A stretch of DNA of 64,000 bases from an uncultured Mycoplasmatota bacterium (GTDB lineage Bacteria > Bacillota_I > Bacilli_A > RF39 > UBA660). This document shows positions 23,583 to 64,000 of this stretch, in pieces. The notes beneath the pieces are model-generated. The model made no database searches, was not told the origin of the DNA, and saw nothing but the letters and a program-made list of their open reading frames with translations. Made by a program: the position numbers and the translations under genes. The stretch lies in assembly GCA_946407055.1 (NCBI GenBank), contig CAMJMP010000001.1:6847-70846 (forward strand). The letters are read 5' to 3'. Position 1 is the stretch's first letter. Each line of letters opens with the position of its first letter.

Positions 23583-23774
23583 ATGTTATACGAAGTAAGT
23601 GTAGAAACAAGAGGTGAATGGGTAGAGAAAACTAGCTATTTAGTAGAAGCTGAAAGTGAAGAAGAAGCTTTGGATAAATACTATAACGGAGATGTAGATG
23701 AAACAGATAGCCACCGTGACGAGTGGGAAAATTGGACATCTGAACCTGACGTTGTAGCGTGTGAAAACGAATAA
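23583..23774 (+). CDS. Hypothetical small acidic protein
   Basis: 63-aa ORF. Confidence 0.35.
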   Translation: MLYEVSVETRGEWVEKTSYLVEAESEEEALDKYYNGDVDETDSHRDEWENWTSEPDVVACENE

Positions 23775-24697
23775 TGAAACCATTTAAAATAACTCAGTCT
23801 ATTACTAATAAAGATGATATATCTATTAAAAATTATTTTAGAGATATATCTAAAATACCTTTATTAACGAAAGAAGAAGAGTTAGAATTAGGTTATATAA
23901 TTCAAAATAACCTTAAGAAATTAAATAATTCAGAAGAATTATCTTTACAAGAAAAACGATTAACTGAAATAGAAATTAATAAAGCAGTTAATAAACTTGT
24001 AAGTGCTAATTTAAAATTTGTTATTTCTGTAGCAAAACAGTATTGTAATCAAGGTTTACCTTTCATTGATTTAGTAAATGAAGGTAATCTTGGTATGATA
24101 CAAGCAGCTAAAAAGTTCGATCCTAATAAAGGATATAAATTTATAAGTTATGCAGTATGGTGGATTAGACAATTCATAATGCAAGCGATAGCTTTAAAAA
24201 GTAGAACTATTAAAACACCTGTAAATCAATCTGCTTCTTTATCTAAACTTAATAACGCAGTTAATAAGTTCGAACAATTAAATGGAATTAAACCTTCTTA
24301 TGAAGAATTATCTAAATTAACAGGAATATCGGTTGAAAAAATAAACAAGATTTATAGTTATAATTCAAGCTGTATTTCTGTTGATACTCCATTTACTACA
24401 GAAGAAGACTCTGGTTGTTTACTTGATGTTGTTAGAAATCCAAATTGTGAAGATTCTGATAAAAATCTAATGGATTCTTCTTTAAAACAAGATATAAATA
24501 GAGTTTTAGATAAGTTATCTCCTCGCGAAAAAGTAATATTACAAATGTTTTTCGGAATAGATTGTGATGCAATGCAGTTAGATCAAATAGCTCCTAAGTT
24601 CGGAGTTACATCAGAGAGAATAAGACAGATTAAAGATAAAGCAATAGAACAGATTATTGTAAAATATAAATCTATCTTAAAAACATATATTATATGA
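23774..24697 (+). CDS. Sigma-70 family RNA polymerase sigma factor (RpoD-like, lacks region 1.1)
   Basis: Region 2 'IDLVNEGNLGMIQAAKKFDPNKGYKFISYAVWWIRQ' and region 4.2 'LDQIAPKFGVTSERIRQIKDKA'. Confidence 0.85.
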   Translation: MKPFKITQSITNKDDISIKNYFRDISKIPLLTKEEELELGYIIQNNLKKLNNSEELSLQEKRLTEIEINKAVNKLVSANLKFVISVAKQYCNQGLPFIDLVNEGNLGMIQAAKKFDPNKGYKFISYAVWWIRQFIMQAIALKSRTIKTPVNQSASLSKLNNAVNKFEQLNGIKPSYEELSKLTGISVEKINKIYSYNSSCISVDTPFTTEEDSGCLLDVVRNPNCEDSDKNLMDSSLKQDINRVLDKLSPREKVILQMFFGIDCDAMQLDQIAPKFGVTSERIRQIKDKAIEQIIVKYKSILKTYII

Positions 24698-46718: not shown

Positions 46719-48092
46719 ATGGATCCAATAGTAATACAAGGAAAATATACTAAAGCAGAAATATACGCAAAAACTATAGAAGATGGTGTATATTCTCAAA
46801 TATATGATATAATCAATTGTCCAGCTTTCAAAGATAAAAAAGTAGTCCTTATGCCAGATGTTCATGTTGGAGCATCTGGTCCTTGTGGACTATGTGCTGA
46901 AATTGGTGACTGGATTTGTCCAGAACACGTTGGTGTTGATATAGGTTGTACTGTATCAATGATGGTTCTTAATAAAAAGATACCTGTTGAAAAATATGCT
47001 GAAATAGAGCATAAAATTAAAAAAGAAATCCCAATGGGTACTAATATTAGAGATATTTCTATTTTTAAAGCAAATAGAATACTTTCTAATTATTTACAAG
47101 AAAAGGATTTCTATAAATTTTTATCAACAAATTTCAATATATATCGTCAGTATTGGCCTGAAATGCTTAATGATTTGCCAACAACTGTAACAGAAGAGTG
47201 GATTTCATCACAACTTAAACGTCTTGGTATGGATGAAGGTGTGTTTTATAAATCTCTCGGAACTATAGGCGGTGGTAATCATTTCATTGAATATGATGAA
47301 TCTGACGATACTGAATATTCTTCTGCTATAACTCTTCATTTTGGTTCAAGAAACTTTGGAGTTAAGATTTGTAAGTATTGGACTGCAAAAGCAGGAAAAG
47401 GTGTTGATAAATCAAAACTAAAAGAAATTACTAAAAACTTCAAAGAAGAGTATAAGAAAACACATTCTGATATGAAGGACTTTCAATCAGCTTTATCAGA
47501 GGTTATAGAACAAGAAAAAGCTAAACTTATTCCTGGTTATTTAACAGGAGAAAATATGAAAGGCTATCTAATAGATATGTGTTTCGGACAACTTTATGCT
47601 TTATATAATCATAGAGTTGTACAAAATATCATAAGTGGAATTTTATATAAATATGATATTAAAGTAAAGGAAATTGTACATACATCGCATAATTTTATTG
47701 ATTTGGAAGATCATATTCTTAGAAAGTCTGCAATTAGTGCAAAATTCAGAGAACCTATGATTGTTCCATTTAATATGAGAGATGGTGTTGCAATATGTAT
47801 TGGAGTTGGAAACGATAATTGGTTAAATTCTTGTGCTCATGGAGCTGGACGTAAAATGTCTCGATCTAAAGCAAAAGAAACATTATCAATGGAAGAGTTT
47901 AAGAATACTATGTCAAACATATATTCTACTTCTGTCAGTGAAAATACCATTGATGAATCTCCTATGGCATATAAAGACTCTGAAGAAATACAAGAAATTA
48001 TACAAGATACTTGTGTAATTAAATGTAGATTATTTCCTAAAATTAGTATTAAATGTGATGAGGCTCCTTTAGAACCTTGGAAAAATAAGTAA
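46719..48092 (+). CDS. rtcB: RtcB-family RNA 3'-phosphate/5'-OH ligase
   Basis: 'LMPDVHVGASGPCG' metal-binding N-terminal motif and 'NSCAHGAGRKMSR' RtcB signature; 457 aa. Confidence 0.75.
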   Translation: MDPIVIQGKYTKAEIYAKTIEDGVYSQIYDIINCPAFKDKKVVLMPDVHVGASGPCGLCAEIGDWICPEHVGVDIGCTVSMMVLNKKIPVEKYAEIEHKIKKEIPMGTNIRDISIFKANRILSNYLQEKDFYKFLSTNFNIYRQYWPEMLNDLPTTVTEEWISSQLKRLGMDEGVFYKSLGTIGGGNHFIEYDESDDTEYSSAITLHFGSRNFGVKICKYWTAKAGKGVDKSKLKEITKNFKEEYKKTHSDMKDFQSALSEVIEQEKAKLIPGYLTGENMKGYLIDMCFGQLYALYNHRVVQNIISGILYKYDIKVKEIVHTSHNFIDLEDHILRKSAISAKFREPMIVPFNMRDGVAICIGVGNDNWLNSCAHGAGRKMSRSKAKETLSMEEFKNTMSNIYSTSVSENTIDESPMAYKDSEEIQEIIQDTCVIKCRLFPKISIKCDEAPLEPWKNK

Positions 48093-48096
48093 TGTT

Positions 48097-48507
48097 ATGT
48101 GTTTAACAAGATCAAACATGAATTGTGGTCCTAGATATGCAACTGAGGACATAATTTGTTATAAGATATTATATAAATTTAATAAAGGTATATATTGTTC
48201 TCCTTATATGAAGTTTCCATATAAGTTAAATGAACGTATATCATCTGATTTTAGTTTTGTATCTCTTCCTCCAGTAAAGATGTCTCCACAAAAAGAATAT
48301 AAGTTTATTAGAATTTTAACATATTTTAGACAAGTAAACAAAGGTTTACATTCGTTTAAATATTTAATAGATGCTAATAAATTTAATAATCGTTTTCTGG
48401 GAGGGACAGTTATGAAATGTATAATACCAAAAGGAAGTTGGTATTATGAAGGAAGAGGTGATGAATTAGTTTCTGATAATATAATAATAATTGAAGAAAG
48501 TAAATGA
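48097..48507 (+). CDS. Hypothetical protein
   Basis: 136-aa ORF. Confidence 0.35.
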   Translation: MCLTRSNMNCGPRYATEDIICYKILYKFNKGIYCSPYMKFPYKLNERISSDFSFVSLPPVKMSPQKEYKFIRILTYFRQVNKGLHSFKYLIDANKFNNRFLGGTVMKCIIPKGSWYYEGRGDELVSDNIIIIEESK

Positions 48508-49187
48508 AAATATTAATAACAAGTGATTTACATGGTTTTCTTCCATATATTGATCAACCAGCAGATTTATTATTAATCTGTGGTGATATTGTTCCGTTAT
48601 CTGTTCAATCAAACGGACATAAATCAAAAGTTTGGTTTAGAGATGTATTTAAAAAATGGGCAGAAGAACTTCCTGTAGACAAAGTAATATTTATTGCAGG
48701 AAATCATGATTGGTTTCCTTATTGGGATGAAGGAACAAAATTAAGAAATCTATTTCCACATGATTCTAAAGTTACATATATTCAAGATGAACTTTATGAA
48801 TATAAAGGAATTAAAATATATGGAACTCCTTGGTGTAAACAATTTTATAATTGGGCATTTAATCTTAATGAAGAAGGATTGAAAGAAAAATATTCTCAAA
48901 TTCCAGAAGGTATAGATATATTAATTACGCATGATGCTCCAAATCAAAATGAAGTTGGAATGATTCACGATGGAATATATAAAGGAGAAGATGCAAGTAA
49001 TTATATTCTTACTGATATAATTAAACAGAAAGCTCCAAAATATTGTTTCTGTGGACATATTCATTCTGGAAATCATCTTTCAAAAGAAATAGATGGAATT
49101 ACATTTGCAAATTGTTCTTATGTAAATGAACAATATGTACCTGTTAATGATTTACATATTTTATATATAGATGACAAAGACGCTTAG
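48504..49187 (+). CDS. Calcineurin-like metallophosphoesterase
   Basis: 'ILITSDLHGF', 'GDIVP', 'GNHDW' and 'GHIHSG'. Confidence 0.6.
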   Translation: MKILITSDLHGFLPYIDQPADLLLICGDIVPLSVQSNGHKSKVWFRDVFKKWAEELPVDKVIFIAGNHDWFPYWDEGTKLRNLFPHDSKVTYIQDELYEYKGIKIYGTPWCKQFYNWAFNLNEEGLKEKYSQIPEGIDILITHDAPNQNEVGMIHDGIYKGEDASNYILTDIIKQKAPKYCFCGHIHSGNHLSKEIDGITFANCSYVNEQYVPVNDLHILYIDDKDA

Positions 49188-49787: not shown

Positions 49788-50228
49788 ATGATAAACATTG
49801 ATGAACTTATAAAAGACGCACTGAAGAGTAAAGACGCTGATAAGCTTAAGGCTTACAGAAATTTAAAGGCTAAGATTATGGAGTATAAGACAGCTAAAAA
49901 TGCTAAACCTTATAATAATCAAGCTGAAATTCAAATCATTAAGAAAATGTGCGATTCTCTTAAAGAGTCCGAAAATAACTATAAAAAGGCGAATAGACAG
50001 GACTTATTTGACGAGTGTATAGTTGAAAGGAGAATACTAGAAAATTTCCTCCCAGTGGCTGCTAGTGCCGAAGAAATCGAATTAGCAGTTAGGGAGTCCG
50101 AACATTTTGTAGATGGAAAAATAAATAAAAAATCAATGGGTTTAGTAATTAAAGAAATTAAATCAAAATTTGATTTTGTAGATGGAAAATTAGTATCAGA
50201 AATTGTTAAGAAGTTTATAAATGATTGA
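49788..50228 (+). CDS. GatB/YqeY-domain protein
   Basis: 'LIKDALKSKDADKLKAYRNLKAKI' matches the YqeY N-terminal helix pattern (L..alKaKd..rl...R.l.a.i); 146 aa. Confidence 0.45.
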   Translation: MINIDELIKDALKSKDADKLKAYRNLKAKIMEYKTAKNAKPYNNQAEIQIIKKMCDSLKESENNYKKANRQDLFDECIVERRILENFLPVAASAEEIELAVRESEHFVDGKINKKSMGLVIKEIKSKFDFVDGKLVSEIVKKFIND

Positions 50229-51255
50229 TATTGAAGGACTTAAAAAACTTATATTAAGTATTTATACTGACAAAGATTTAGTACGCATGGATGGCGATCA
50301 ACAAGACGACTATATCTTTGGAAAGTTTTATAATACAATTCCATTTTATTTTAATTACCATCCGACGAATGATAATTTTGATTATTGTAATCCATTTCCG
50401 CATAAAGAAGATTATGATCCAAAACAATCATTCTTTAAACTTGTAGAAGAATTTAAAGAAGACGGTTATCTTTTCAATTCTGATTTATATACAGAATATG
50501 GAGTTTTATCTCCGTATTCTCAAATAAAACTTACAAGTAAAGTAATTCCAGAAAGAATAAAGAAATGTTTAGTCTTAAAGGAACACAAAATTGAAAATAT
50601 CTCAAAAGCAATTGTAATTGAGAATGGAGAGATTGAAACACGAACTATAAATATTGAAAGAATTACTGATGAAGCTCTTATTAATTATAATGAAGATCTT
50701 CCTGTAGAAAAATTTGATAATTTCATAGAATCTGATAAATCTGGAATTGCTTTGATGCATGGTATTCCTGGTTCTGGTAAATCTTATTTTCTTAGGTATC
50801 TTATAAATAAACATAGAGATAAAAACTTTATTTATTTCGATAAGACCTTACTTGGTGATTCTACATCAGTAAAGTTTAATAGGTTTTTGGACTATAATAA
50901 AAATTCTATTTTAATATTAGAAGATTGTGAACAATTAATTAAGTCAAGAAATTTATCTAATAATTACTTTATTCACACGCTTCTTAATATCTCTGATGGA
51001 TTAGATGGAGACGATTTAAACATCAAATTTATTTTAACTTTTAATACTGATTACAGTAATATTGATACAGCATTAACTCGTAAAGGTAGACTTAGATTAA
51101 GATATGAATTTAAGAAACTTACAATAGATAGAGTTAAAACTTTATTTGAAAAGTTTAATATAAACGATACTCCTAAACCTATGGCTCTTTGTGATATTTA
51201 TAACTATTTCGAAGAAACAGGTGCTGAAGATAATCGTAAGAAGTTAGGATTTTAA
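50221..51255 (+). CDS. AAA-family ATPase
   Basis: Walker A 'GIPGSGKS', Walker B 'ILILED', second region of homology 'DTALTRKGRL'. Confidence 0.65.
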   Translation: MIDIEGLKKLILSIYTDKDLVRMDGDQQDDYIFGKFYNTIPFYFNYHPTNDNFDYCNPFPHKEDYDPKQSFFKLVEEFKEDGYLFNSDLYTEYGVLSPYSQIKLTSKVIPERIKKCLVLKEHKIENISKAIVIENGEIETRTINIERITDEALINYNEDLPVEKFDNFIESDKSGIALMHGIPGSGKSYFLRYLINKHRDKNFIYFDKTLLGDSTSVKFNRFLDYNKNSILILEDCEQLIKSRNLSNNYFIHTLLNISDGLDGDDLNIKFILTFNTDYSNIDTALTRKGRLRLRYEFKKLTIDRVKTLFEKFNINDTPKPMALCDIYNYFEETGAEDNRKKLGF

Positions 51256-51813: not shown

Positions 51814-51863
51814 AAGGGCGACTTGATTGGATAAACTCCAGTCAGGTCGCCCTTATTTTTTTA
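51814..51863. terminator. Terminator shared by both strands, between the convergent + and minus gene blocks
   Basis: AAGGGCGAC...GTCGCCCTT stem followed by ATTTTTTT; also the 3' end of the minus-strand gene 51861-56660. Confidence 0.6.
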
Positions 51864-54800
51864 CTCTTGTGAATTAACTTTAAGTGTATGGAATACAGGT
51901 TTAAATTGGTTGAATAAGGCATTTGATTTACCAATTGTGGTATAAATGCTTTGATCTCCGAATATTGTTTCGTGAACATTACTATATTGTTTTCCTAAAT
52001 ATTCGAAAGCAAACGGTGTCCAACTAACAGCTGGATCTCCAATAGTATCTATAAAGTTAAAATCTAAGAATGAATTTTTAACAGATTTAATTGCTATATT
52101 ATATGCTGATAATTTAAGTGCATCACCCATATCGGTTTCACTTGAATTTTTCTTTTCATCATCATAAGCTCCTGCTAATGCTGCAGCTATGATGTTTCCA
52201 ACAAGCATAAACATTATTAAATCATAACCTAATTGTTTCATATTAGAACGATATGCAGTACGTAAATTTAAATCTTCATTATACCACATATTTCTCCATC
52301 CATCTGAGATTCCATCGTTTTTCATACTACCTAATAAAGTATATATAGTAGAAACAATTCCTTCTTTCCAATTACCTTCCCAACGAACAACTTGTTCAGT
52401 TGAAGCATTTTCATCTCCTTCTTTTACAGGAGGTTCATTAAATAATATGTTGCCTTCTGCATCTTTTTGATAATAATATTTTATAGTATTACCACTTTCA
52501 TCTTTTTCAGTATAAGGAACCCAACGTCCTTCAAGTTTTACACCACCATGTGCAAGATATTGATTCTTTTTACCAGACCAGAATGTTTTAAACTGCATGA
52601 ATAATGAACCCCAAAGTGTTGATTGAATCATAGATTTCTTTTCATGTGAATAATAACCATAAAGTGTATCACCTAAAGATTTCATTGATTCTGACTCTAA
52701 GTTTGTATAAGCACGAGGTAGTTTTGTTTTCTCTGATAAATCAAATTTAAACTTACTACCATCTGGATTTAAAGCATTTTCTTTTTCAAATTGTCTTGCA
52801 GCTGCAATGTAAAGCATTTTAGCTTTTTCATATTCAGCTGGGTTAGATCTATCATCATCAAAAAATGCTTTATATCTCTTATCTAAAGCACAATCATATT
52901 CAAGTACTCCTTTACTATTAATTTTATGTGCTTCATAAGAACCTTCATTAATCATCTTAGCAACAAAGATTGTCATTCTGTTATAATAGTCTGGACGTGA
53001 TGCAAATTTAAATAAGAAGTTATTGAAATTAAATATACCGTTTTGGTCAGTCTTTATTTTATCAATATATGTATTCATATCCATATCATTGACACCATAA
53101 AGTCTATTAAACTCTTCAATTATTGTTGGTTTATCTGTATAGGCTTGTGGATTAGTTAATTCTCCATAAACTATTTTAGCTGCCTCTAACATATTAGATA
53201 ATGTAAAAGCATCAGTTCCATCTGGCTTACGGATTATTAATGATATGTCTTGCCATATACCTTGTATTGTCTGATAAATTGCTTGAACAGGAGATAAGCC
53301 AAGAACTAATTTAGATGCTGCTTGTTTGATTTTATTTAAAAATGCAACAGCAGGTCTATACTTTTCTGGAATAATTGATTCATTTTTAATCTTATTTTTA
53401 ACATAATTTTCAAGATATTCAAGGTCGTTTTTGAAACCTTCCTCTACATTTTGATTAAAACCTTGAACTGTAAGATTAATCATAGATGCTTTAATCATAG
53501 GGAACACTTCATTTACACGATTTTTCATATCATATGCAAAAGTATGTTTTAAGAAAAGTGTTTCAAGATTAAGTTCATATCTTTTACGAGCTAATATCTT
53601 ATCACGAAGTTTTCCTTCTCCGTAATCAAAATAATTAGTCATTTCAAATAAAGACTCAGAACTTTTATATTCTTGTTGTAATTTATCATCAAAAATTCCT
53701 TCAACAGATGCTTTTGCTCTTCTCCAAGCCTCTTTTGGTAACCAACCTTTAAGTCTATCTTTAAATGCTGCAAGAAGTCCATCTTTTGCAGAAATTACAG
53801 AAGTGTCTCCTTCACAAAGAGGTATTCTATAATATTTAGGATTATTCTTTTCGTATCCTCTATTTTCATTTATTATAGGAAGAACATATTGTAAAAATTC
53901 TTTTTCTTCTGGTAATAAACTATCATCTGTATCAGGATCTTTAAAATACACTTCTCCATCTTTATCAAATTCATACATATTAATGTATAAAGATGCTTGA
54001 TTACCTGTTGTATTTTCTTTAAGCCATCCAAAGTTTTTACGTTTTTTTAATTTTTCTACTAATTCGCGCATTTTAGCAGCAGGTTCTTGTATATCAGCGC
54101 GTACGTTTTGATAAGCTTCTGTTACTAATTTTGTTACAGAATTAAGTGTTTCAGATGATAAGTTACCAGGGTTATCAATCATATTACCACTAAGTCCTTC
54201 TTTATGAACCATTAATGATTGACACCAGTTTTCATGGTCATGTAATTGTTGTTTAAAGTTAATACCTTTAAGTTCAGCAATAGCAAGTAAACATTGATTG
54301 TATAATGCTACATGATCTTTAGATAATTGGTCTTGATTAGTAGTATAATTCTTTAAGATTTTACCTTTATCGGTTGTTTCAAGTTTTTTAATAATATCTT
54401 GAAGTGCTGATATTTTTTCATCTATAGAAGCATTACTTTCTATAGCAGTATCTAAAGCACTTTGACAACTCTTAAAATCTTTAAATTTAGAATATTCTTC
54501 TAACTCAGTTTTAACCATTATATCAGAAAGCATTGTTTTAGCTAATTGAACTTTAGCTGCCATTTTAATTTCTCCAGATTTGAAATTATTTCCTATAGAA
54601 ATTTTGCCTTCTGTACCACTTACTGTTTCTAATTCATTAAATGTATCAAATAGTTCTTTATTAGAACCAGCTTGAATACCTACACCTAATTGAGGATCGG
54701 CAACAAATACGTCACCTACACAAGCATTTTCTTTATCAATTAATTTATTTAACTGATTAATTGCAAGCATTGCTTCAATAAGTTCTATATTACCATATGT

Positions 54801-56660
54801 TGCTTGCATCATCATAGAGTCTGGATTTGATTTAAAATACAAATCTGATTTAAAACAACCACCTAATGTAGTTCTTCCGTTGCCAAAATTAAATTGTCGT
54901 TTTAAGTTTTGTGTAGATATTTTTACAAAATTATATTGTCTATTTCTTGCATTAAATAATGTTATAATACCTAATGCTTCAAGTGGCTTAAATGCTTCGC
55001 CTTCACAAACTTGCCAATTTTTATTAGCGTATCTATCCATTATACGAGCAAACCAGTCTTGACCAATATTATCAGTAAATTCAATACCTTCTACTGTTTC
55101 ATGTTCAATAGCAGTTTTAAGATGTCTTTTAATATTTTGTGTTAATTTATCACGAAATTTAGGTCTATCTTTTAACCACTTTTCTACTTTTTTAACAAGT
55201 TCATCTTCAGCATTAGGAAGTGAAGCATCGACTTTTATTTCTTCTGCATTTTTCTTTCTTGCTCCTTTCGGAACGAATACTAAATTACCTGCTTCATCTG
55301 GTTCAAATGCGTTAGCTTCCTCACATAATTTTTTAGCATCCTCATAACTATACGTTTTAAATTGTGAATAATTCTTGAACCATTTACCCATAGTATCTTG
55401 AACGTTTTGTAAGAAATCATCTGTTGATAATTCAGGTTGATATTGATAATCAATTACTTCATTAAGTTTTGTTTCAATATTATCGTCCAAAATTCTATTA
55501 GTAATATCTTCAAATACATTGTTTCTTAAATTAAATCCTGTAAATGTATATTTATCATCATCTTCATATTGAAAGTCAGCAATTTGTATAGGAACAATTA
55601 AATATTTTGTTTTATTAATATTTATTCCAGCTTTTGCAAGAAGACGTCCATATACAGCTGTTTGATAAGTATATGCTAATTTCTTAGCAGAATTGAAGTG
55701 ATCGTAATCGTGAATAGATGTTTTATAATCTACAATTTGAGGATTTCCTTCTTTGTCAATAACAAGTAAGTCAATGATACCCATTACTGTATCAACACCA
55801 TTTGCAACATTAGTATCTATTTTACCTGTTATTTTAAACTCAGGGTAAAAAAGACAATCATCTCCAAATTTATTAATAACAGCTTGTTCAATTTCTTTAC
55901 ACTTATTAAGTGCTTGTATAAACTGAGCATCTGTCATTAAATCATTAAATTTAATTGAACTTCCGTCTTTTCTTTTATATGTTAATGAAGATAATTTATT
56001 TCTAAATTCATTTAAAACATTAGGATCATTTTTAAGAGCGTCTTTCATGTAAACAATATTATCATCAGTAGATGATTCATGTTTACTAAAATATAATTCA
56101 AGAACAGAGTGAGTAGCATCACCAATTAATGCTTGATGTTCCCATTTGTTTTCTATTAAACCTCTTAAACGATCTTGTTGATGGGTATCTGAAACTTTAG
56201 GCATATTATTAACATCCCAACCTTCAACTTGTGAGAATAATTCTTTTTCAGCATCATTAAATTCACCTTTTGCCCAATCACCAAATCTTCCTTTAGTTCT
56301 ATCGTTTGTTCCCCAATAATTATCAGGTATAAATTCAGGGAAAAGAAGTTCATCATCTTCAGTTTTAAATCCAGATAAGAATCTATTTACACCAATATAA
56401 GGTGCTCGGAAATTATAAGAGTCTCTTTCGTCTCCAATGAATCTATTATTACGAGCATAATCCCATTCAGCTTCTAATTTCTCAGATTTTTCAGATTCTT
56501 TTTGTAATATATCTAAAACAACTGCTTGATGTGTATTAATCTGGAATACTATATCACCAAGAGATTTTCTTAAATAATTCTTTGCTAATAAAAAATCATC
56601 TAATTCAATTTCAGAATTAAATTGATGTCCGTCTAATAAATATACACAATTCATGAACAA
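51861..56660 (-). CDS. Giant protein (1599 aa) with an embedded RecB-family PD-(D/E)xK nuclease motif
   Basis: 'MGIIDLLVID...QIVDYKTS...YQTAVY' (hhhD / DYKT / QxxxY) at about aa 290-345, which is about 55625-55780; the rest is unassigned. Confidence 0.5.
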   Translation of the reverse strand: MFMNCVYLLDGHQFNSEIELDDFLLAKNYLRKSLGDIVFQINTHQAVVLDILQKESEKSEKLEAEWDYARNNRFIGDERDSYNFRAPYIGVNRFLSGFKTEDDELLFPEFIPDNYWGTNDRTKGRFGDWAKGEFNDAEKELFSQVEGWDVNNMPKVSDTHQQDRLRGLIENKWEHQALIGDATHSVLELYFSKHESSTDDNIVYMKDALKNDPNVLNEFRNKLSSLTYKRKDGSSIKFNDLMTDAQFIQALNKCKEIEQAVINKFGDDCLFYPEFKITGKIDTNVANGVDTVMGIIDLLVIDKEGNPQIVDYKTSIHDYDHFNSAKKLAYTYQTAVYGRLLAKAGININKTKYLIVPIQIADFQYEDDDKYTFTGFNLRNNVFEDITNRILDDNIETKLNEVIDYQYQPELSTDDFLQNVQDTMGKWFKNYSQFKTYSYEDAKKLCEEANAFEPDEAGNLVFVPKGARKKNAEEIKVDASLPNAEDELVKKVEKWLKDRPKFRDKLTQNIKRHLKTAIEHETVEGIEFTDNIGQDWFARIMDRYANKNWQVCEGEAFKPLEALGIITLFNARNRQYNFVKISTQNLKRQFNFGNGRTTLGGCFKSDLYFKSNPDSMMMQATYGNIELIEAMLAINQLNKLIDKENACVGDVFVADPQLGVGIQAGSNKELFDTFNELETVSGTEGKISIGNNFKSGEIKMAAKVQLAKTMLSDIMVKTELEEYSKFKDFKSCQSALDTAIESNASIDEKISALQDIIKKLETTDKGKILKNYTTNQDQLSKDHVALYNQCLLAIAELKGINFKQQLHDHENWCQSLMVHKEGLSGNMIDNPGNLSSETLNSVTKLVTEAYQNVRADIQEPAAKMRELVEKLKKRKNFGWLKENTTGNQASLYINMYEFDKDGEVYFKDPDTDDSLLPEEKEFLQYVLPIINENRGYEKNNPKYYRIPLCEGDTSVISAKDGLLAAFKDRLKGWLPKEAWRRAKASVEGIFDDKLQQEYKSSESLFEMTNYFDYGEGKLRDKILARKRYELNLETLFLKHTFAYDMKNRVNEVFPMIKASMINLTVQGFNQNVEEGFKNDLEYLENYVKNKIKNESIIPEKYRPAVAFLNKIKQAASKLVLGLSPVQAIYQTIQGIWQDISLIIRKPDGTDAFTLSNMLEAAKIVYGELTNPQAYTDKPTIIEEFNRLYGVNDMDMNTYIDKIKTDQNGIFNFNNFLFKFASRPDYYNRMTIFVAKMINEGSYEAHKINSKGVLEYDCALDKRYKAFFDDDRSNPAEYEKAKMLYIAAARQFEKENALNPDGSKFKFDLSEKTKLPRAYTNLESESMKSLGDTLYGYYSHEKKSMIQSTLWGSLFMQFKTFWSGKKNQYLAHGGVKLEGRWVPYTEKDESGNTIKYYYQKDAEGNILFNEPPVKEGDENASTEQVVRWEGNWKEGIVSTIYTLLGSMKNDGISDGWRNMWYNEDLNLRTAYRSNMKQLGYDLIMFMLVGNIIAAALAGAYDDEKKNSSETDMGDALKLSAYNIAIKSVKNSFLDFNFIDTIGDPAVSWTPFAFEYLGKQYSNVHETIFGDQSIYTTIGKSNALFNQFKPVFHTLKVNSQE

Positions 56661-57709
56661 AATTCCTCCAATTTACCCTCTCTCATTAAAGCAGCTTTAG
56701 TATTCATTTCAATACGATGTAAACTGTTATCATCAAGAGATCCTTTAAATTTATTAACTAATAATGAAGAATTTACTTTCTTTGCTAAATCTTTAAGTGA
56801 CATAAATCCTAATTCTGATGTATTAACAGAATTAACACTACTGTTTCCCATTAAGACAGAATCAAATACACGATTTAAATCATAAAATAAATTATATCTA
56901 TCTGATTCATTTAAATCATTAAGTTTAGAAGGAAATCCAGTTAAATATTTAGAAAACTCTTCAACAAGTATTTCTTCATTTATATCATTTCTAGTTCTAT
57001 CTTTAAATTGCTCTATTAAAAGAGGATAATCTTCAAAATTTTGTGTTTTATCCAATAACGATTGATATAATTGAGGATTAGTAAAACGAATTGATCCTAA
57101 AAATAAATGCATCATTTCATGTAAAGGAGCATCTACATTAGCAACATCTGTATTAATATAAATATTTCCATTATATACAAAAGCTGATGTATTTTTAGCA
57201 TCAGGAACTAATCCGTTCCATTCTTCTGTCATTAATTCAGCAATACTAGTTGGAATAATATTAATTCCATATAGTCTTGCTAATTTATCTATAGTTTGAT
57301 TTAATAAAGCAGTACTATTTATATTATCATCCATTTCTATAACTTCTTTTTCTTTAATATTATAGATGGATGGTCTATGTTCTATTTCTACATGAGCAGA
57401 TGTTTTTAATGGAACAAGAGTTATTTCCAAATCTCTAAATTCATCATTAAGTGCTACATTTGCTTCTTCTATATTATCAGTACCTGTCACTTCTAAAATA
57501 TTATTTATTTTAGCAGAAGTTCCTGTCATTTTAAGTGCGTCTTTTAGATAAGGTTCAGAATTACTATTTCGTAATTCATCAAGATATGGAAATCTATCAT
57601 ATTTATCTAAAAACATTCTACATTGTGCTTGTAATTCAAAATCAGAGAGTCCAGACTTCGACTTTAAAGTCTGGAACTCTACTGAATTAATATTTATACA
57701 TGATGCCAT
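56651..57709 (-). CDS. Putative zinc metallopeptidase-like protein (HExxH)
   Basis: 'APLHEMMHLFLG' HExxH motif; overlaps the downstream giant gene by 10 nt. Confidence 0.4.
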   Translation of the reverse strand: MASCININSVEFQTLKSKSGLSDFELQAQCRMFLDKYDRFPYLDELRNSNSEPYLKDALKMTGTSAKINNILEVTGTDNIEEANVALNDEFRDLEITLVPLKTSAHVEIEHRPSIYNIKEKEVIEMDDNINSTALLNQTIDKLARLYGINIIPTSIAELMTEEWNGLVPDAKNTSAFVYNGNIYINTDVANVDAPLHEMMHLFLGSIRFTNPQLYQSLLDKTQNFEDYPLLIEQFKDRTRNDINEEILVEEFSKYLTGFPSKLNDLNESDRYNLFYDLNRVFDSVLMGNSSVNSVNTSELGFMSLKDLAKKVNSSLLVNKFKGSLDDNSLHRIEMNTKAALMREGKLEEFCS

Positions 57710-57834: not shown

Positions 57835-60800
57835 CTATGGATATTTTGTTAATAAATCATGTTTTATTCCAATTTCTTCAAGAGACTTAACATCCCAATC
57901 AATAGGATTAAATCTAACTTCTCCAACAACATGATCTTCAATACGTATTGTTTCCTTTCTAGTTTCGTTTTCAACAGATAAAAGCCTATCACTAGGAACC
58001 ATGTAATAATTACTTACATCTATATTTCTAATGATTAAATTTACTTTTTTAGCATATCCATTTATAGCACCCATAGATTTTTGTATTCTATACCAAGCTG
58101 TTGCAGGTGGTATGTTTTCACTTGCTGCTAAAGCTTCAATATCTTCTCTATAAAATCTACTATTTAATTTTTCCCAAAGTTCAGTGTGAAGTGTTTCAGG
58201 ATCTTGTGTATAAATGTATCTACCTGTTGCTGCATAAGGATTTTGAACTTTAAGTATATATGGGAAAAGTTCAAGTTGATCAAGTGGAACTTTTTCATCA
58301 AAAGATGACTCAAATTTATGAAAATCTGATAATTTATATTGAGGATTATCATGTAGATTTTCAAAAATTGGCATTAATGATTGTTGTCCTTGCTTACCGT
58401 AATGAGCAATTAATCCATAATAATAGAATAAATCAACTAATGGAATATTTTGTCCATTAAGATTATATGAATATCCTTGAAGTTTATTAAATTCTGATTT
58501 ATAACTATTAAATACACCTCTTTCTTCATCAGAAGAAGGTAACATATTAATAGGAAGTGTGTAGTTAATAATAGGATTGTGAGTAACTGTGTTTGTTAAT
58601 ATTGAAACTGTTAACGCTTTAATAAATCTGTTATCAGAAATATTTTTAGTAGTTCCATTTTCTCCAAGTGAACCTTTTTGTAAATTAGGTATAATTATAT
58701 TTTCCATAATATACTTAAATGAAGCATCACCAGAAGCAGTTCCTAATTTAATTTCACATTCTTCATCTATTAATTTTCCATTAGCTATACTTTTTATACC
58801 TTTTGGTATTTTAATAGATGGAAGATTTCTTAACATCCATTTACGTCTTACATAATCAGAATAATAATTAGCAATTCCTTTGAATAAATCTTGTTTATCT
58901 TTACTTGTATTTCCAACTAAACCTTCTTCTAATAAATATGTTCCTATTTCAACAGTGGTTTTAAACTTATTACTTGTTTCTAAACTTGATTTATATGCTA
59001 CAACTAAAGATTGTAAATAACCAGAAAAATGAGGAACTGTGAATACTGCATCTAAAACATTAACAGATGCTTTTACGTTATCATAGTTTTCAATACATTG
59101 ATTTCTGTATTCTTCATCAGTATAGAATCGAACAAGATCGAAAGCCTCATATCCATTTTCTGCCTTTTTTGGAACATCTTTATTTTCTAATAGACTTAAT
59201 CTAACAGCTATTCTATGATTTGCATCTATTATAGCTTGATTTCTATTTCTAATTACATTTTCTAAATCAATTACTTTTGAAATTATTTCTTCTGGTTTTG
59301 TAGGTAAACCTTTATTAAGACCAAATATTTGTCCTAATATTTTTAATTCCTCAGCACCTTCAGAAAGTGTTTTTAATGAATTATAAGTCCATTCATTTTC
59401 TTTAACTATATTTACTTGTCTTATATACTCTTCTAATTCATCAATAAGTTGATTATATTTTTGTTTATCTTCAACGGCTACTTCTTTTGTAGTATTTCCG
59501 TATTTATATAATCCTTTTAATGATTCGAGTATTTCAATTTTATCATATAGATTTATTGATTTATCCCAAGCAAATTTAGCAAATAAATAATAAGGAGACA
59601 AATTTTGTACTCCATATTTCAATCCTAAAGATTTAGATAAGTATTCAATATAATTTGGAACTACTTTGTTGTTTACAATTTTAGTTTCATCATATTTACT
59701 TAGCGTATCACGAGGACCTGTTTCAAGATAATCGAAAACTTTTGATATAGAGAATATACCTTTTTCTCCTGTGAATACGTTACTCTTTGTAAGATCTGTT
59801 AATAATAAACCAACATCAGAAGTCATGATTTTAGATACTGATTCTATATCCATTCCAATAGAAACACCAAAAACATACATTCCTAATGTCTTAATGCCTG
59901 CGTTTAATTTACTTAACTGTAACTCTTTAGCATTATCAGTAGCAAGTGAAAGTAAAGCAGACAAATCTAGAGCCGCATCAGAATCATCATAAGTTTCAGA
60001 TAATGTATCATATAATTCAGATCCTATCTTAGGATTTATATTAGCGAAATATTTATAAATTCTAGCTCCTTTTTCACCAGGAACATAGATTTTTATTTCT
60101 TTATTTCTTCCTAATGCAATTCTATCCTTTTGTTTTCTAATTGCTTCACGTTCTTCATCGGTTCCTATTACAGGTCTATTAACAACATAATTGAAATATT
60201 CTGTTAATCCGAAGAAAGTTTTCATACCAACGGCACAGATACTAATACCATCTTTACCAACTTGGTTATCTTCGATAGATTCTGCTTTATTAAATACATT
60301 ACCAGGTGTACGTTCATTAATAAGTTTACCAACTTTAAAGTTCTTAGTAATATTTTTAACAGGACCCGTCATAGCATCTACAGAAGATTGTGCTTGAGTA
60401 AGATTTGCAGCTGTATCAATAATCTTATACATCTTATACATAGAATAATTTTTAGCAATAGAAATTAATTTATTATTACTTACATTACTAAGATAATTAT
60501 TATGTTCATTAATTATTGATGTAAATTCTTCTGTAAAATTACACTTCTTCATTCTTAAAGCCTTAGATAATCTTTCATTTAATTTATCATTTAATTGATA
60601 AAGTCCATTTTCATTAACTTCTTTAATAAATTCAGATAATAAAGTTAAATTAGGATTTTGTTTTAAGTAAATATGTGAAGTGTTTTTTCTTGTTCTAAAA
60701 TTAAATAAATCAGAATATTTATTAATTAAATTGCCAAAGTAGTTTAGAGCATCAGAATTAAATTCTGCTTTTTCATCATCTGTTGCGTCTTCTGATATAT

Positions 60801-60858
60801 CTTTAAGTTCTACATTCTTTCCAGTTGGGAAAGGTAGTTTCATAGAATCGTTAATATT
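57835..60858 (-). CDS. Giant intron-split gene, exon 2 (1002-aa ORF plus about 5 upstream codons); function unknown
   Basis: The frame is open 6 codons upstream of the ATG at 60843. It joins exon 1 (62045 and beyond) if the intron is removed. Confidence 0.45.
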   Translation of the reverse strand, partial: NINDSMKLPFPTGKNVELKDISEDATDDEKAEFNSDALNYFGNLINKYSDLFNFRTRKNTSHIYLKQNPNLTLLSEFIKEVNENGLYQLNDKLNERLSKALRMKKCNFTEEFTSIINEHNNYLSNVSNNKLISIAKNYSMYKMYKIIDTAANLTQAQSSVDAMTGPVKNITKNFKVGKLINERTPGNVFNKAESIEDNQVGKDGISICAVGMKTFFGLTEYFNYVVNRPVIGTDEEREAIRKQKDRIALGRNKEIKIYVPGEKGARIYKYFANINPKIGSELYDTLSETYDDSDAALDLSALLSLATDNAKELQLSKLNAGIKTLGMYVFGVSIGMDIESVSKIMTSDVGLLLTDLTKSNVFTGEKGIFSISKVFDYLETGPRDTLSKYDETKIVNNKVVPNYIEYLSKSLGLKYGVQNLSPYYLFAKFAWDKSINLYDKIEILESLKGLYKYGNTTKEVAVEDKQKYNQLIDELEEYIRQVNIVKENEWTYNSLKTLSEGAEELKILGQIFGLNKGLPTKPEEIISKVIDLENVIRNRNQAIIDANHRIAVRLSLLENKDVPKKAENGYEAFDLVRFYTDEEYRNQCIENYDNVKASVNVLDAVFTVPHFSGYLQSLVVAYKSSLETSNKFKTTVEIGTYLLEEGLVGNTSKDKQDLFKGIANYYSDYVRRKWMLRNLPSIKIPKGIKSIANGKLIDEECEIKLGTASGDASFKYIMENIIIPNLQKGSLGENGTTKNISDNRFIKALTVSILTNTVTHNPIINYTLPINMLPSSDEERGVFNSYKSEFNKLQGYSYNLNGQNIPLVDLFYYYGLIAHYGKQGQQSLMPIFENLHDNPQYKLSDFHKFESSFDEKVPLDQLELFPYILKVQNPYAATGRYIYTQDPETLHTELWEKLNSRFYREDIEALAASENIPPATAWYRIQKSMGAINGYAKKVNLIIRNIDVSNYYMVPSDRLLSVENETRKETIRIEDHVVGEVRFNPIDWDVKSLEEIGIKHDLLTKYP

Positions 60859-62044
60859 CTATAAAGAACTTAAATCTGCATAAGGAGACCAAAGTGGAAG
60901 TCTACCGCTCTTATCAATATCATATGCTGCAATAGATACAGCATCAATATCCGTTTACCATATATTTTTCAATATATGACTGACTATATCTTCATATAAT
61001 TAATTTCCAATTATATGTCTCGCGCTTCGAAAGTTATCAGTTTTCTGATAAGCAATAAATTCTTCTTTTGTAAAGTTATCTCTAATTTTATATAATAAAG
61101 ATGGAACTTGTTCTACATATGGTTTAATTATATTTACGAAATTTATGCAATCTTGTTCAGATGATGTTGCTAAAGAATATGTATTTTTTCCTTCTTTAAA
61201 AGGTCTAAAGTTAATATTCCAAATTTCTTTAAAATATGTAATCATCATATTAATTGTTTCTTCATCTACACAAGTAGCAATTTTACAAGTATGTTGTATA
61301 GAACTACGTTGAATAGAAGTATTAACATTAATACATCCATCATCCATATACCATATAGCTAATCCTAACGGATTTAACCAATTTAATAAATTTCTAGTAA
61401 AAGTTTTCTTTGGTTTATAAACACTTCTTCTTAATGCTTTAATTGTAGGATTTGTTTTTATTCTAACATATAAAACTTTGTTTCCTAAATTATATCCACA
61501 TTTAGATATATATTCTTTTAAACCACCATGTTCAAAACCATATTTTTCTAATAATTTAATTTTCCATTCTAAAAATTCTCGTTGAGATTCTGAATGTGAT
61601 AATTTATAATCTGGATGATTTGTGATTGTTCCATCTCCAATTAACATTGAAATTAATAGAGATTTTTGTTCTTTAGTAAGTTTTCTTTTAATTTTTCTTG
61701 CCATTTCATTTAAATTTTAATATTAAACTTAAATGAAAGCTCTCTACTCCCTTTTGGGATAGTCGATGAACTTTCATCCTTATACAAAATAAAAATATAA
61801 AATTTTGCATCAATTTACAAGTCTTATATTTAATTTTTGCATCTAGGATGCTTAGCTGCGGATTGTCCAATTCTTTTCTTTTTTACTATACCTTTATTAG
61901 TTAAATAAAGCCTTTATGTATATTTCTATCATAAATTAGTAGAAAAGACTCTAAGGAGTTTCCCGTCAGTTCACGAGATTTAATGACTACAACGATTTAT
62001 GAATTAATTCAAAGGTTCGTATGTCAATTTCGGACTGAAATTCA
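60859..62044 (-). mobile_element. Group I intron carrying a LAGLIDADG homing endonuclease ORF (boundaries inferred)
   Basis: On the minus strand: 'CCGCAGCTAAGCATCC', 'GTTCATCGACTATCCC' and 'AAGATATAGTCAGTC' (compare Tetrahymena 'AAGAUAUAGUCGGAC'). The exon ends in U (..GACTAT|) and the intron ends in G (..TATAG|). Confidence 0.55.
61000..61704 (-). CDS. LAGLIDADG homing endonuclease
   Basis: Two LAGLIDADG motifs, 'LLISMLIGDGTI' and 'LAIWYMDDGC'. Confidence 0.8.
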   Translation of the reverse strand: MARKIKRKLTKEQKSLLISMLIGDGTITNHPDYKLSHSESQREFLEWKIKLLEKYGFEHGGLKEYISKCGYNLGNKVLYVRIKTNPTIKALRRSVYKPKKTFTRNLLNWLNPLGLAIWYMDDGCINVNTSIQRSSIQHTCKIATCVDEETINMMITYFKEIWNINFRPFKEGKNTYSLATSSEQDCINFVNIIKPYVEQVPSLLYKIRDNFTKEEFIAYQKTDNFRSARHIIGN

Positions 62045-64000
62045 ATAGTCAGAACCTTGTAACCAAATCTGTGCTGTAGATACGAAAGCAGTATTAATAT
62101 TTGGGTTATCAAATGCTACAATCTTCATAGGCATGAATGATTGCATTGATTGAGAAGGTGTACGAGAAGCAACTGTTTCTAATGATTTTAAGAAAGAAGA
62201 ATGCATTTCTCTACCTAAAGTTTTTAAATAGTTAGCAAGAGGATGATCATTATCACTATCAATGTCTATAATATCATCAATTTTACTATTTTGTTCTTTA
62301 ATGATTTGAGTATTTAATTTAGTTAAAGCCTCTTCATCCCAAATATCAGAATCTTCTACAGTACCTTGAGTTAAGAATTGATAAAATCTGTTTGCTGATT
62401 TATTTTTACTTACTTTAAATAATTCAGCAGATGTAAATTCAGGATCAGATGTTTCTGAAATTTTAGCTGTTGTATAATTTAAGTGATTAACATAAAAACC
62501 AGGGTTCTTAGTGTAAATTATTTCATTACCTAAGCTATCAATATAGATTTTATCTTCTTGACTTGATAACGAATGTATTTGATTTCCATCTGAATCAATT
62601 CTGTATAAGTTTCCATTTTCTGAAAATTTATCAATTTTTAATTCAGTTAAACCATTTATTTGTTCTGGATATGTTGCAATATAATAATGATTTAGTTTTC
62701 CTGTAAACTTATTTTTACTACCATTTAATAAAGCAATACTATAATTACTTTCATCAGCAGTAGGTTTAATGTTATTAATCAACTTATAAGTAAAGAAATC
62801 TGGATCATTAGCTATATCAGTTAATTGATCATATTGATCAAGTCCAAACTCATTAATAAATATTTTAGGAAGAATTAATTCGTAAGGTTTTGACTTAATA
62901 CTTGTTTTATTAACTAAGACTTCTTGTCCATCAATTAAGACTGTTTGTTTATCAGTAAAATCGTTTCCGTTTTCTGATAAAACTAAGTTATCTTGTCTAA
63001 CAAGTTTACGTAGATATTTCTCTAATTGTTTATAATCAAATTCTCCATTAGGTAAAAGATGTTCATAGTTATGTTTAAATACAGAATAAAGTTCTTGTTG
63101 TTTAAGGAAATCCTTTTCATCAAGTATTTCTTTTAAATCAAACAATGCTCTAACAGAGTCTAAATCCCATAATGAATAATCATAACTATTTTCTCCAATA
63201 TTACCTTTAAATAATACATCATAGTTTCCTAATTCGTGACCTACTGTAAGGTCTTGAACTATAGAAGTATAACCTCCTTGTAATATACGTCTTTTTATAT
63301 CACTACGTTGTCTTGGAGTTTTAATCTGTACAGATTTTCCATCAATTATATAAGTTTTACCTATTTCTAAATAATTGAAGTTTATATTTTGTACAGGTTG
63401 TCCGTTTTCGTCAAGTGTTGTTTCAAGTACAACAGGTGCATTTTGTTGTATTGCTTGAAGATATTCTTCAGCAGATATTCCGTCTTCGTTATATTCTAAT
63501 TGTTCATACTTTACATCAATGTATCTAATTGAACCATCTGGGTTTGTTCCCTTTGGTATAGTATACATTTGCATAATATTATACGATGGAGTAAGAACTG
63601 ATAAGATTCCTGGAATTTTCATTTTAATACCAGAATTTGTTAAGAATACAGAAACTGTTGATAAGAATTTAGCATATACAGCAGGATTATCTTTTGGAAG
63701 TTTCTCTAAGAAATCCTCAGTTTTTAATTTTTGTCCTGTTTTAACTTTATCAATTAATTCAGATGCGAAAACAGAAAGTAAATCATTTTCACTCATTGAT
63801 TGTCTTGCTAATGCTTTAACAACTGTATTAACAGTAGCTTCAACAATTGCTTTTTGAGTGTCAACATTTTCATCATTAATATACTCTTTAATTGGTTCAA
63901 GTAATTCACTTGTTCCTATATCAGTAAGTGTTCTTAATGCTCTATACATTTCCATAGAATCATCAAGAGAGAATCCTTTATGTGCACAAGCATTCATAAC
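62045..64000 (-). CDS. Giant intron-split gene, exon 1 (more than 651 aa; continues past the window edge)
   Basis: The ORF is open to the window end ('...VMNACAHKG'). Its stop at 62042-62044 lies just inside the predicted intron. Confidence 0.45.

Follow-up and report, generated by a model that had tools for sequence, protein, structure and literature searches.

The window analysed here is a stretch of 64,000 nucleotides from contig CAMJMP010000001.1 of the uncultured Mycoplasmatota assembly GCA_946407055.1 (positions 6,847 to 70,846). It carries on its minus strand a gene for a giant protein of 1597 amino acids, which lies in an operon with a virion RNA polymerase (vRNAP) gene and immediately follows a gene for a 352-residue protein with an HExxH motif. 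The window sequence is also found on a metagenomic contig of 181,348 bp that looks like a crAss-like phage of the Zeta type. Our best explanation, which we consider probable, is that the giant is the Zeta-type version of the virion cargo protein that crassviruses encode next to their vRNAP; it would be injected together with the polymerase, and would differ from its counterparts in having a nuclease at its head and a peptidase module that is detached. All positions below refer to the window, and the homologue sets, AlphaFold2 (AF2) models and Foldseek and hhalign comparisons are those of the present analysis.

The likeness to known cargo proteins lies in the long C-terminal module of the giant. 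An AF2 model of residues 430-1597, built from a 40-sequence alignment, is mostly helical with one beta-hairpin block (mean predicted local distance difference test score, pLDDT, 80.3; predicted template-modelling score, pTM, 0.79). When this model was compared by Foldseek with the predicted viral structures of BFVD, it matched cr111_1 (E = 3.2e-9, TMq 0.42), a crAss-like protein named 'putative RNA-polymerase subunit', protein S0A048 of Cellulophaga phage phi14:2 (E = 1.9e-8, prob 1.00, TMq 0.43) and a structural protein of phage phi17:2 (E = 2.7e-6), together with crAss-like proteins named 'PD-(D/E)XK endonuclease-like' and 'Exonuclease'. The same model resembled nothing in the PDB (best E = 0.56), and neither phi14:2 gp66 nor the T7 and N4 ejection proteins were recovered. 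A profile of residues 1000-1597 retrieved 901 clusters at 50% identity (E <= 1e-3), and nearly all of the best 150 of these 901 are proteins of 1450-1700 residues with the module at the C-terminus. Judged by this spread, the giant is a conserved core gene of the whole phage clade and not an accessory gene of fast turnover.

The protein S0A048 is GenBank Phi14:2_gp076, a protein of 1421 residues annotated as structural on the basis of tandem mass spectrometry. It is encoded directly downstream of the 2180-residue RNA polymerase gp077 (DFDID at residue 1361), is the last gene before a convergent replication block, and carries HEIMH at residue 245. Matched by position, gp076 corresponds to 'gp65' in the numbering of Drobysheva et al., who found gp65 in phi14:2 virions, described a zincin-like protease domain in it and in its orthologues, and proposed that it might activate the polymerase (preprint 10.1101/2020.03.07.982082). 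In crAss001, gp50 (DFDVD) is followed in the same way by gp49 (1349 residues), a protein that mass spectrometry detected in virions (PMC10172136). The target shares with gp076 and gp49 a position directly after the vRNAP gene, at the end of its block and convergent with the replication block; here the order runs from the vRNAP gene through a 1002-residue open reading frame (ORF) and the HExxH gene to the nuclease giant and the block end, and gene maps show that distant relatives keep this order, with overlapping stop and start codons. It also resembles them in the predicted fold of a helical C-module of about 1100 residues, and shares with them a hydrophobic helix near the C-terminus, a start of the form M-x(1-3)-C, and an association with an HExxH domain. 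Unlike both, it has a RecB-type domain and a 170-residue N-terminal region ahead of the shared module and, unlike gp076, its HExxH domain is a separate, coupled protein of another sequence family. In a profile-profile comparison by hhalign, residues 1060-1499 of the giant align collinearly with gp49 880-1235 over 321 columns (E = 0.006, probability 6%), and the alignment takes in YGYYSHEKKS against HGIYNKADRS, a WxEG motif and the hydrophobic helix. That helix is the single strongly hydrophobic one in the module, with a Kyte-Doolittle mean of 2.06 over 19 residues against 1.34 for the runner-up segment. It is hydrophobic throughout the family, as well as in the gp49 alignment, and could be either membrane-inserting or buried.

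The giant has a putative nuclease at its head. The initial annotation had singled out a RecB-family triad, and the strings GIIDLLVID, IVDYKTS and YQTAVY are indeed present. Alignment of this motif to PD-(D/E)xK profiles had been set beforehand as a check on the proposal, and residues 171-429 do align to PF12705 (PDDEXK_1) with 36.6 bits and E = 6.3e-9, where the curated gathering cut-off is 22; the same match is precomputed for nearly all homologues of the giant. Across 29 full-length homologues (37-72% identity), G178, H182, E272, D295, D309, K311, Q331 and Y335 are invariant. On a wider scale, 122 of 127 full-length representatives of 50%-identity clusters retain the domain, and in these divergent proteins the motif residues are kept in 88-99% of cases (D295 in 121, K311 in 117, Y335 in 112, Q331 in 111 and D309 in 107 of the 122). 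On sequence grounds, then, the giant has a complete RecB-type PD-(D/E)xK site and not a chance motif match. In common with the RecB, AddB and Cas4 members of PF12705 it has a profile score above threshold and the full series of GxxxH, E, hhhD, DxK and QxxxY elements. Unlike them it has no helicase partner domain and no CRISPR context, and its nuclease is embedded in a 1597-residue protein of virion type. The Cas4-like reading that had been put forward alongside the RecB one is ruled out, since the four cysteine ligands of the 4Fe-4S cluster of Cas4 and AddB are not conserved in the family: the only invariant cysteine is C3, and those inside the nuclease domain (252 and 267) are variable. Yutin et al. 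(2021, PMC7886860) have already noted PD-(D/E)xK domains in the giant proteins that crAss-like phages encode in the transcription block, and the giant thus belongs to a known but functionally uncharacterised class.

A comparable core occurs elsewhere among the crassvirus virion proteins. In crAss001 gp47 (2341 residues), positions 1777-1866 hold a PD-(D/E)xK core reading GEVDIL...IYDVKTS...QLSAY that aligns by hhalign to the family profile of the giant with E = 8.8e-5; among the single crAss001 and phi14:2 sequences compared with this profile, the gp47 nuclease core was the only convincing match. A HEAFH motif lies at residue 2157 of gp47, about 300 residues past the nuclease core, and Pfam misses both. 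The D...DxK...QxxxY core of gp47 is like that of the target, but it is placed towards the C-terminal end of another giant, encoded upstream of the polymerase block, so that both domain order and carrier differ. The protein is a crAss001 virion protein verified by mass spectrometry and labelled just 'putative RNA-polymerase subunit'.

Ahead of the nuclease, residues 1-170 form a conserved region of their own, in which C3, F12, E15, L18, F21, L22, G33, D34, G88 and V89 are invariant in the 29-homologue alignment. The cargo-type proteins compared here all begin with methionine, one to three residues and a cysteine: MNC, MASC, MAKKC and MSC (56643-56654 and 57698-57709 in the window; crAss001 gp49 and phi14:2 gp076), and MGC in the fusion protein P0323 described below. 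The N-terminal cysteine is invariant inside each cargo-type family, and the 352-residue protein has in addition an invariant C-terminal cysteine (..EE[FY]C). This start could be a packaging signal, a processing signal or a metal site.

Both ORFs are on the minus strand of the ORF list, as the initial annotation described, but several particulars of their arrangement change. The raw large ORF spans 51861-56660 and gives the 1599 residues reported earlier when counted from TTG 56660. A cluster in the protein database (P0001) is identical to the large protein and has a length of 1597 residues, and members of the family begin MxCxY, so that ATG 56654 is likely to be the real start. With this start, the overlap between the stop of the 352-residue gene and the start of the giant gene is not 10 but 4 nucleotides (ATGA), through which the two genes are predicted to be translationally coupled. 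Nor does the pair stand at the start of the minus-strand block: the giant gene is the last of its transcription unit and faces the convergent plus-strand block. Between the two blocks lies a hairpin (51814-51854), the one such site found where 0.2 were expected, which is likely to be the terminator for both blocks; its action on the minus strand is deduced from its position between convergent genes. Database searches with these proteins returned little. The GenBank phage collection gave matches to three unannotated 'Bacteriophage sp.' gut contigs only, PHROGs and NCBIfam gave no significant family for the 1597-, 352- or 1002-residue proteins, and sequence searches of the PDB with the giant and the HExxH protein (phmmer and profile) gave only noise (40S S21, TFIIS, Rop and 2dla, all at E >= 0.019).

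The smaller protein carries the HEMMH motif reported by the initial annotation at residues 197-201, and P195, H197, E198, H201, D242, E245 and E246 show no variation among 28 homologues. Its AF2 model (pLDDT 79.5) has a well-predicted N-domain (residues 1-115) followed by a linker, then a helix at 132-147, strands at 151-154, 176-179 and 182-186, the HExxH helix at 196-210 and a further helix at 240-257 that carries E245 and E246; these elements make up a domain of residues ~130-352. The core of zincin-like metallopeptidase (MPTase) domains consists of an N-terminal helix and three strands before the HExxH helix, with a Glu ligand later in the chain (Iyer et al. 2017, PMC5512222). The predicted order of elements in the 352-residue protein agrees with this core, a comparison of order and not of three-dimensional geometry. 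The protein matches no known zincin family by profile or fold, so that we call it zincin-like on its motifs and topology only. An hhalign comparison of its family with the N-terminus of phi14:2 gp076 and with the gp49 family was not significant, and we therefore claim no sequence homology between its zincin-like domain and that of gp076. An ADP-ribosyltransferase (ART) domain, ART-PolyVal (PF18760, E values as low as 5e-17), interrupts 9 of 120 listed homologues precisely at the linker that joins the N-domain to the HExxH domain; one of these ART-bearing genes occupies the same operon position.

The peptidase module and the giant are joined in some relatives and separate in others. In P0272 (2006 residues), positions 1-345 correspond to the HExxH protein in its entirety (hhalign E = 3e-60) and run on into the N-terminal motif of the giant; P0268 (1931 residues) has the same layout. 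In P0323 (1836 residues), the family N-terminus is followed by an HExxH domain, the nuclease and the C-module, and here the HExxH domain differs from the 352-residue type and resembles that of phi14:2 gp076 (BLASTP E = 0.003). We considered whether these long proteins were gene-calling artefacts of the recoding of TAG to Gln, and ruled this out because the junction contains no stop codon of any kind. As their sequences read, the HExxH protein and the nuclease giant thus form one polypeptide in some relatives. A fusion of the three crassvirus proteins has already been published (preprint 10.1101/2020.03.07.982082). In the literature searched we found no description of the ART-PolyVal insert in this operon or of how the peptidase module is split off in some genomes and fused in others, an absence that does not prove novelty.

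Several observations weigh against the reading of the giant and its partner as injected cargo. Searches of Pfam, PHROGs, NCBIfam and the PDB with the 352-residue protein found no match, and Pfam is null for all 28 members of its family; with its model, the best Foldseek match in the PDB has E = 0.32, and the zincin protease BlaR1 appears at E = 1.2. Pfam finds no PD-(D/E)xK domain in phi14:2 gp076 or crAss001 gp49, so the nuclease of the giant is an addition, whose role cannot be transferred from those proteins. The hhalign comparisons with single crAss001 and phi14:2 sequences were not significant for gp49 or gp076; sequence similarity being weak, homology of the C-module to these proteins rests on model-against-model TM scores of 0.38-0.43 and on synteny. 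Finally, presence in the virion is known for phi14:2 gp076 and crAss001 gp49, whereas for the present phage and the Zeta group it is a prediction.

With these points in mind, we infer packaging, injection, both enzyme activities and their substrates as follows. The giant would be a late product that enters the capsid and leaves it for the cell together with the DNA or just before it, alongside the vRNAP, and the 352-residue protein would likewise be made late, packed and expelled with DNA and polymerase. The helical C-module of about 1170 residues, with its one hydrophobic helix, probably serves packaging, ejection or association with the polymerase. The N-terminal third is predicted to be a catalytically competent RecB-type nuclease, which would cleave DNA ends or single-stranded DNA (ssDNA) at the onset of infection. 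The 352-residue protein may be the detached counterpart of the zincin-like domain at the N-terminus of phi14:2 gp65; as a peptidase it would probably process or activate cargo proteins, and in some relatives it may also deliver an ADP-ribosyltransferase.

The pair can be compared with the polyvalent proteins described by Iyer et al. (2017, PMC5512222), which are large, are expressed late, and carry further enzymatic domains besides a zincin-like HExxH domain. MPTase domains have been suggested to act as processors of cargo, and N4-type vRNAPs are always fused to one (Iyer et al. 2017, PMC5512222). The present locus resembles these systems in its association with a virion RNA polymerase, in the fusion and fission of modules between genomes and, among relatives, in ART-PolyVal; the presence of this domain in HExxH homologues fits the logic of polyvalent injected effectors. 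It differs in that neither protein of the target pair has a Pfam MPTase-PolyVal or LPD match, and in that the polymerase is of the two-barrel type and not N4/T7-like. The initial annotation had likened the pair to virion-delivered proteins such as P1 DarB and ArdC. The delivery part of that suggestion finds indirect support in the virion presence of gp076 and gp49 and in the ART-PolyVal domains, but both analogies fail: DarB has a dyad of adenine methylase and superfamily 2 helicase, and ArdC joins the ssDNA-binding domain ArdC-N to an MPTase, whereas neither protein of the pair has a Pfam match to a methylase, a helicase or ArdC-N at E <= 1.

What the two enzymes would do inside the cell admits other answers. 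The pair might be an injected set directed at the host or its defences, in which the nuclease degrades host or competitor DNA while the peptidase and ART modify host proteins in polyvalent style. The ART-PolyVal insertions (PF18760, E = 5e-17) point this way, as do the description of zincin MPTase and ART domains as hubs in the architectures of injected polyvalent proteins (Iyer et al. 2017, PMC5512222) and BFVD matches of low significance (E ~0.03) to proteins named 'large polyvalent protein-associated domain'. Counter-defence genes typically evolve fast, however, whereas architecture and position here are fixed over hundreds of divergent clusters; no DarB, ArdC or anti-restriction family was matched in Pfam (the PADLOC library was not searched), and PD-(D/E)xK is not a usual domain of polyvalent proteins (PMC5512222) and would therefore be atypical. 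We regard this answer as fairly unlikely. RecB-type nucleases with a QxxxY motif usually act at DNA ends or on ssDNA, and the domain might instead prepare the template, resecting or nicking the entering phage DNA so as to bare ssDNA for the co-injected polymerase. The strict conservation of the nuclease in the vRNAP operon and the PD-(D/E)xK core in crAss001 gp47, another virion 'RNAP-associated' protein, are consistent with such a role, as is the finding that phi14:2 vRNAP works efficiently in vitro on ssDNA or denatured DNA and hardly on double-stranded DNA (preprint 10.1101/2020.03.07.982082). Against it, the idea is purely inferential, resection of the phage's own genome ends would be costly, and Pfam finds no PD-(D/E)xK domain in phi14:2 gp076 or gp078 (gp077 was not scanned), yet the polymerase works in vivo. 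Template preparation is on balance distinctly improbable, and so is the fuller scheme in which the detached zincin also frees the polymerase from a self-inhibited packaged state. Use of the nuclease against host DNA or in counter-defence is about as unproven as its use in template preparation.

Two further readings would remove the protein from the injected cargo or deprive it of catalysis. RecB-family nucleases often serve recombination, and the initial annotation had offered a replication or packaging nuclease as its alternative; on this view a nuclease of replication, recombination or packaging would act in the cell and not be packaged in virions. According to Yutin et al. (2021, PMC7886860), crAss-like phages do carry one to three PDDEXK nucleases, whose roles differ, but the gene is in the vRNAP operon, on the strand opposite to and convergent with a replication block that has its own helicases, primase, ligase and nucleotide genes. 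About 1170 residues of the protein are moreover common to virion proteins verified by mass spectrometry, and in relatives a peptidase module of a type characteristic of packaged proteins is joined to the giant, all of which makes this alternative very unlikely. The strongly hydrophobic helix, the long helical build with no enzyme match in the PDB and a BFVD match of low significance (E = 0.05) to a T7-like 'internal core protein' could alternatively be taken to indicate a purely structural protein of the ejection channel, with nuclease and HExxH motifs that are non-catalytic relics. Across deep divergence, the catalytic residues of the two motifs vary little or not at all, which argues for retained chemistry, and we give this last reading hardly any credence. 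A tail or tape-measure identity, which the initial annotation had named as a point to check, was rejected: no such match was found in Pfam, PHROGs, the PDB or BFVD, and crAss-like phages are described as podoviruses (PMC10172136). The interpretation of the giant as polymerase-adjacent, co-injected cargo is thus the one that we prefer.

Table 1. Features of the minus-strand block, with positions in the window
Feature	Position	Strand	Details
Hairpin terminator (likely)	51814..51854	.	Perfect 18-bp stem, 9 GC pairs, plus-strand T-run
Coding sequence of the 1597-aa cargo protein (probable)	51861..56654	-	Start ATG 56654 (likely), stop 51861-51863; ORF list, cluster P0001, >225 full-length homologues
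Conserved N-terminal region, aa 1-170	56145..56654	-	Family consensus MxCxYxYKGHxFNSELELDDFLL...PPYIGVNKFLSG
RecB-type PD-(D/E)xK nuclease domain, aa 171-429	55368..56144	-	Pfam PF12705, invariant residues, 122-representative conservation
Catalytic core D295, D309-x-K311, Q331-xxx-Y335	55650-55781	-	Within nuclease domain
Mostly alpha-helical region, aa 430-1597	51864..55367	-	AF2 model, BFVD matches, profile search
Most conserved part, aa 1000-1597	51864-53657	-	Within C-module
Single strongly hydrophobic helix, aa 1479-1497	52164..52220	-	LIMFMLVGNIIAAALAGAY; Kyte-Doolittle
Coding sequence of the 352-aa HExxH protein	56651..57709	-	ORF list; HEMMH 57107-57121; E245/E246 56972-56977
1002-aa ORF	57835..60843	-	Part of the vRNAP polypeptide after the catalytic motif; fused to the RNA polymerase in relatives
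Virion RNA polymerase gene	60859..64000	-	5' end outside window; >2120 aa
vRNAP exon 2	60951-60859	-	DIDAVS...SSL, then TAG
Group I intron with LAGLIDADG ORF	60952-62044 (ORF 61000-61704)	-	1093 nt; LAGLIDADG_2 E = 1e-21
vRNAP exon 1	ends 62045	-	...LQGSDY

The polymerase gene upstream of the pair (Table 1) is itself interrupted. The Rfam match of its intron to Intron_gpI has 27 bits, below the gathering score. The exon before the intron ends in T and the intron itself in G, and the reading frame picks up as DIDAVSIAAYDIDKSGR...; an intronless relative, L006, reads QGSDLDIDAVSLASF..DKSGR. As the exon ends and this relative read across the border, the intron splits the DxDxD catalytic motif (DYDID) of a two-barrel RNA polymerase. 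The vRNAP frame then ends at a TAG codon (60859-60861), 30 codons past DxDxD, and the 1002-residue ORF begins five codons on in the same frame. Residues 2-903 of this ORF match positions 1990-2878 of the 3320-residue giant protein of L006 (BLASTP E = 2e-98), and in relatives that read TAG as Gln the vRNAP and the 1002-residue part are a single polypeptide (of 3320 residues in L006). The TAG at 60859-60861 could mark a true split of the polymerase or be read through; the window contains no suppressor tRNA, and the 1002-residue ORF likewise ends in TAG. The relatives L004, L006 and L010 have dozens of in-frame TAG codons read as Gln in their late genes (62 in the P0272 gene), where the copies in the window have none. 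The genetic code therefore differs among close relatives of this gene family.

The remainder of the window agrees with a phage genome of this kind. Its GC content is about 29%, and a plus-strand block extends to 51.8 kb, with the minus-strand block beyond. The plus block is a replication and nucleotide-metabolism block, encoding a helicase, DnaB, a Toprim primase, NrdD, a ligase, a sigma-70-family protein, Thy1, RtcB, a metallophosphatase and an AAA ATPase. Yutin et al. (2021, PMC7886860) describe the Zeta group of crAss-like phages as having genomes of such a size, with a comparable intron load, recoding and a DxDxD motif interrupted inside the ORF, and it is the match of the 181-kb contig to these features (its introns, the TAG recoding in its relatives and the interrupted DxDxD) that underlies our Zeta-type assignment. 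The sigma-70-family protein (23774-24697, plus strand), located in the replication block, has regions 1.2, 2, 3 and 4 (Pfam region 2, E = 7e-18), which suggests that a phage sigma factor redirects host RNA polymerase for part of the programme. At the end of the plus block lie genes for an RtcB RNA ligase (46719-48092), a metallophosphatase (48504-49187), a YqeY/GatB-like protein (49788-50228) and an AAA ATPase (50221-51255), all on the plus strand; RtcB hints at repair of tRNA or other RNA against host anticodon nucleases.

No phages are more abundant in the human gut than the crassviruses, and according to a 2026 paper on N4 the three 'RNAP-associated' cargo proteins still need investigation (PMC13434306). 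The locus described here reveals no new kind of system and will not surprise a specialist. It shows, for a clade of crAss-like phages with large genomes, that the protein encoded next to the polymerase bears a fully conserved RecB-type nuclease, and that the accompanying peptidase module may be separate, fused to it, or loaded with an ADP-ribosyltransferase, which makes the locus a useful experimental handle.

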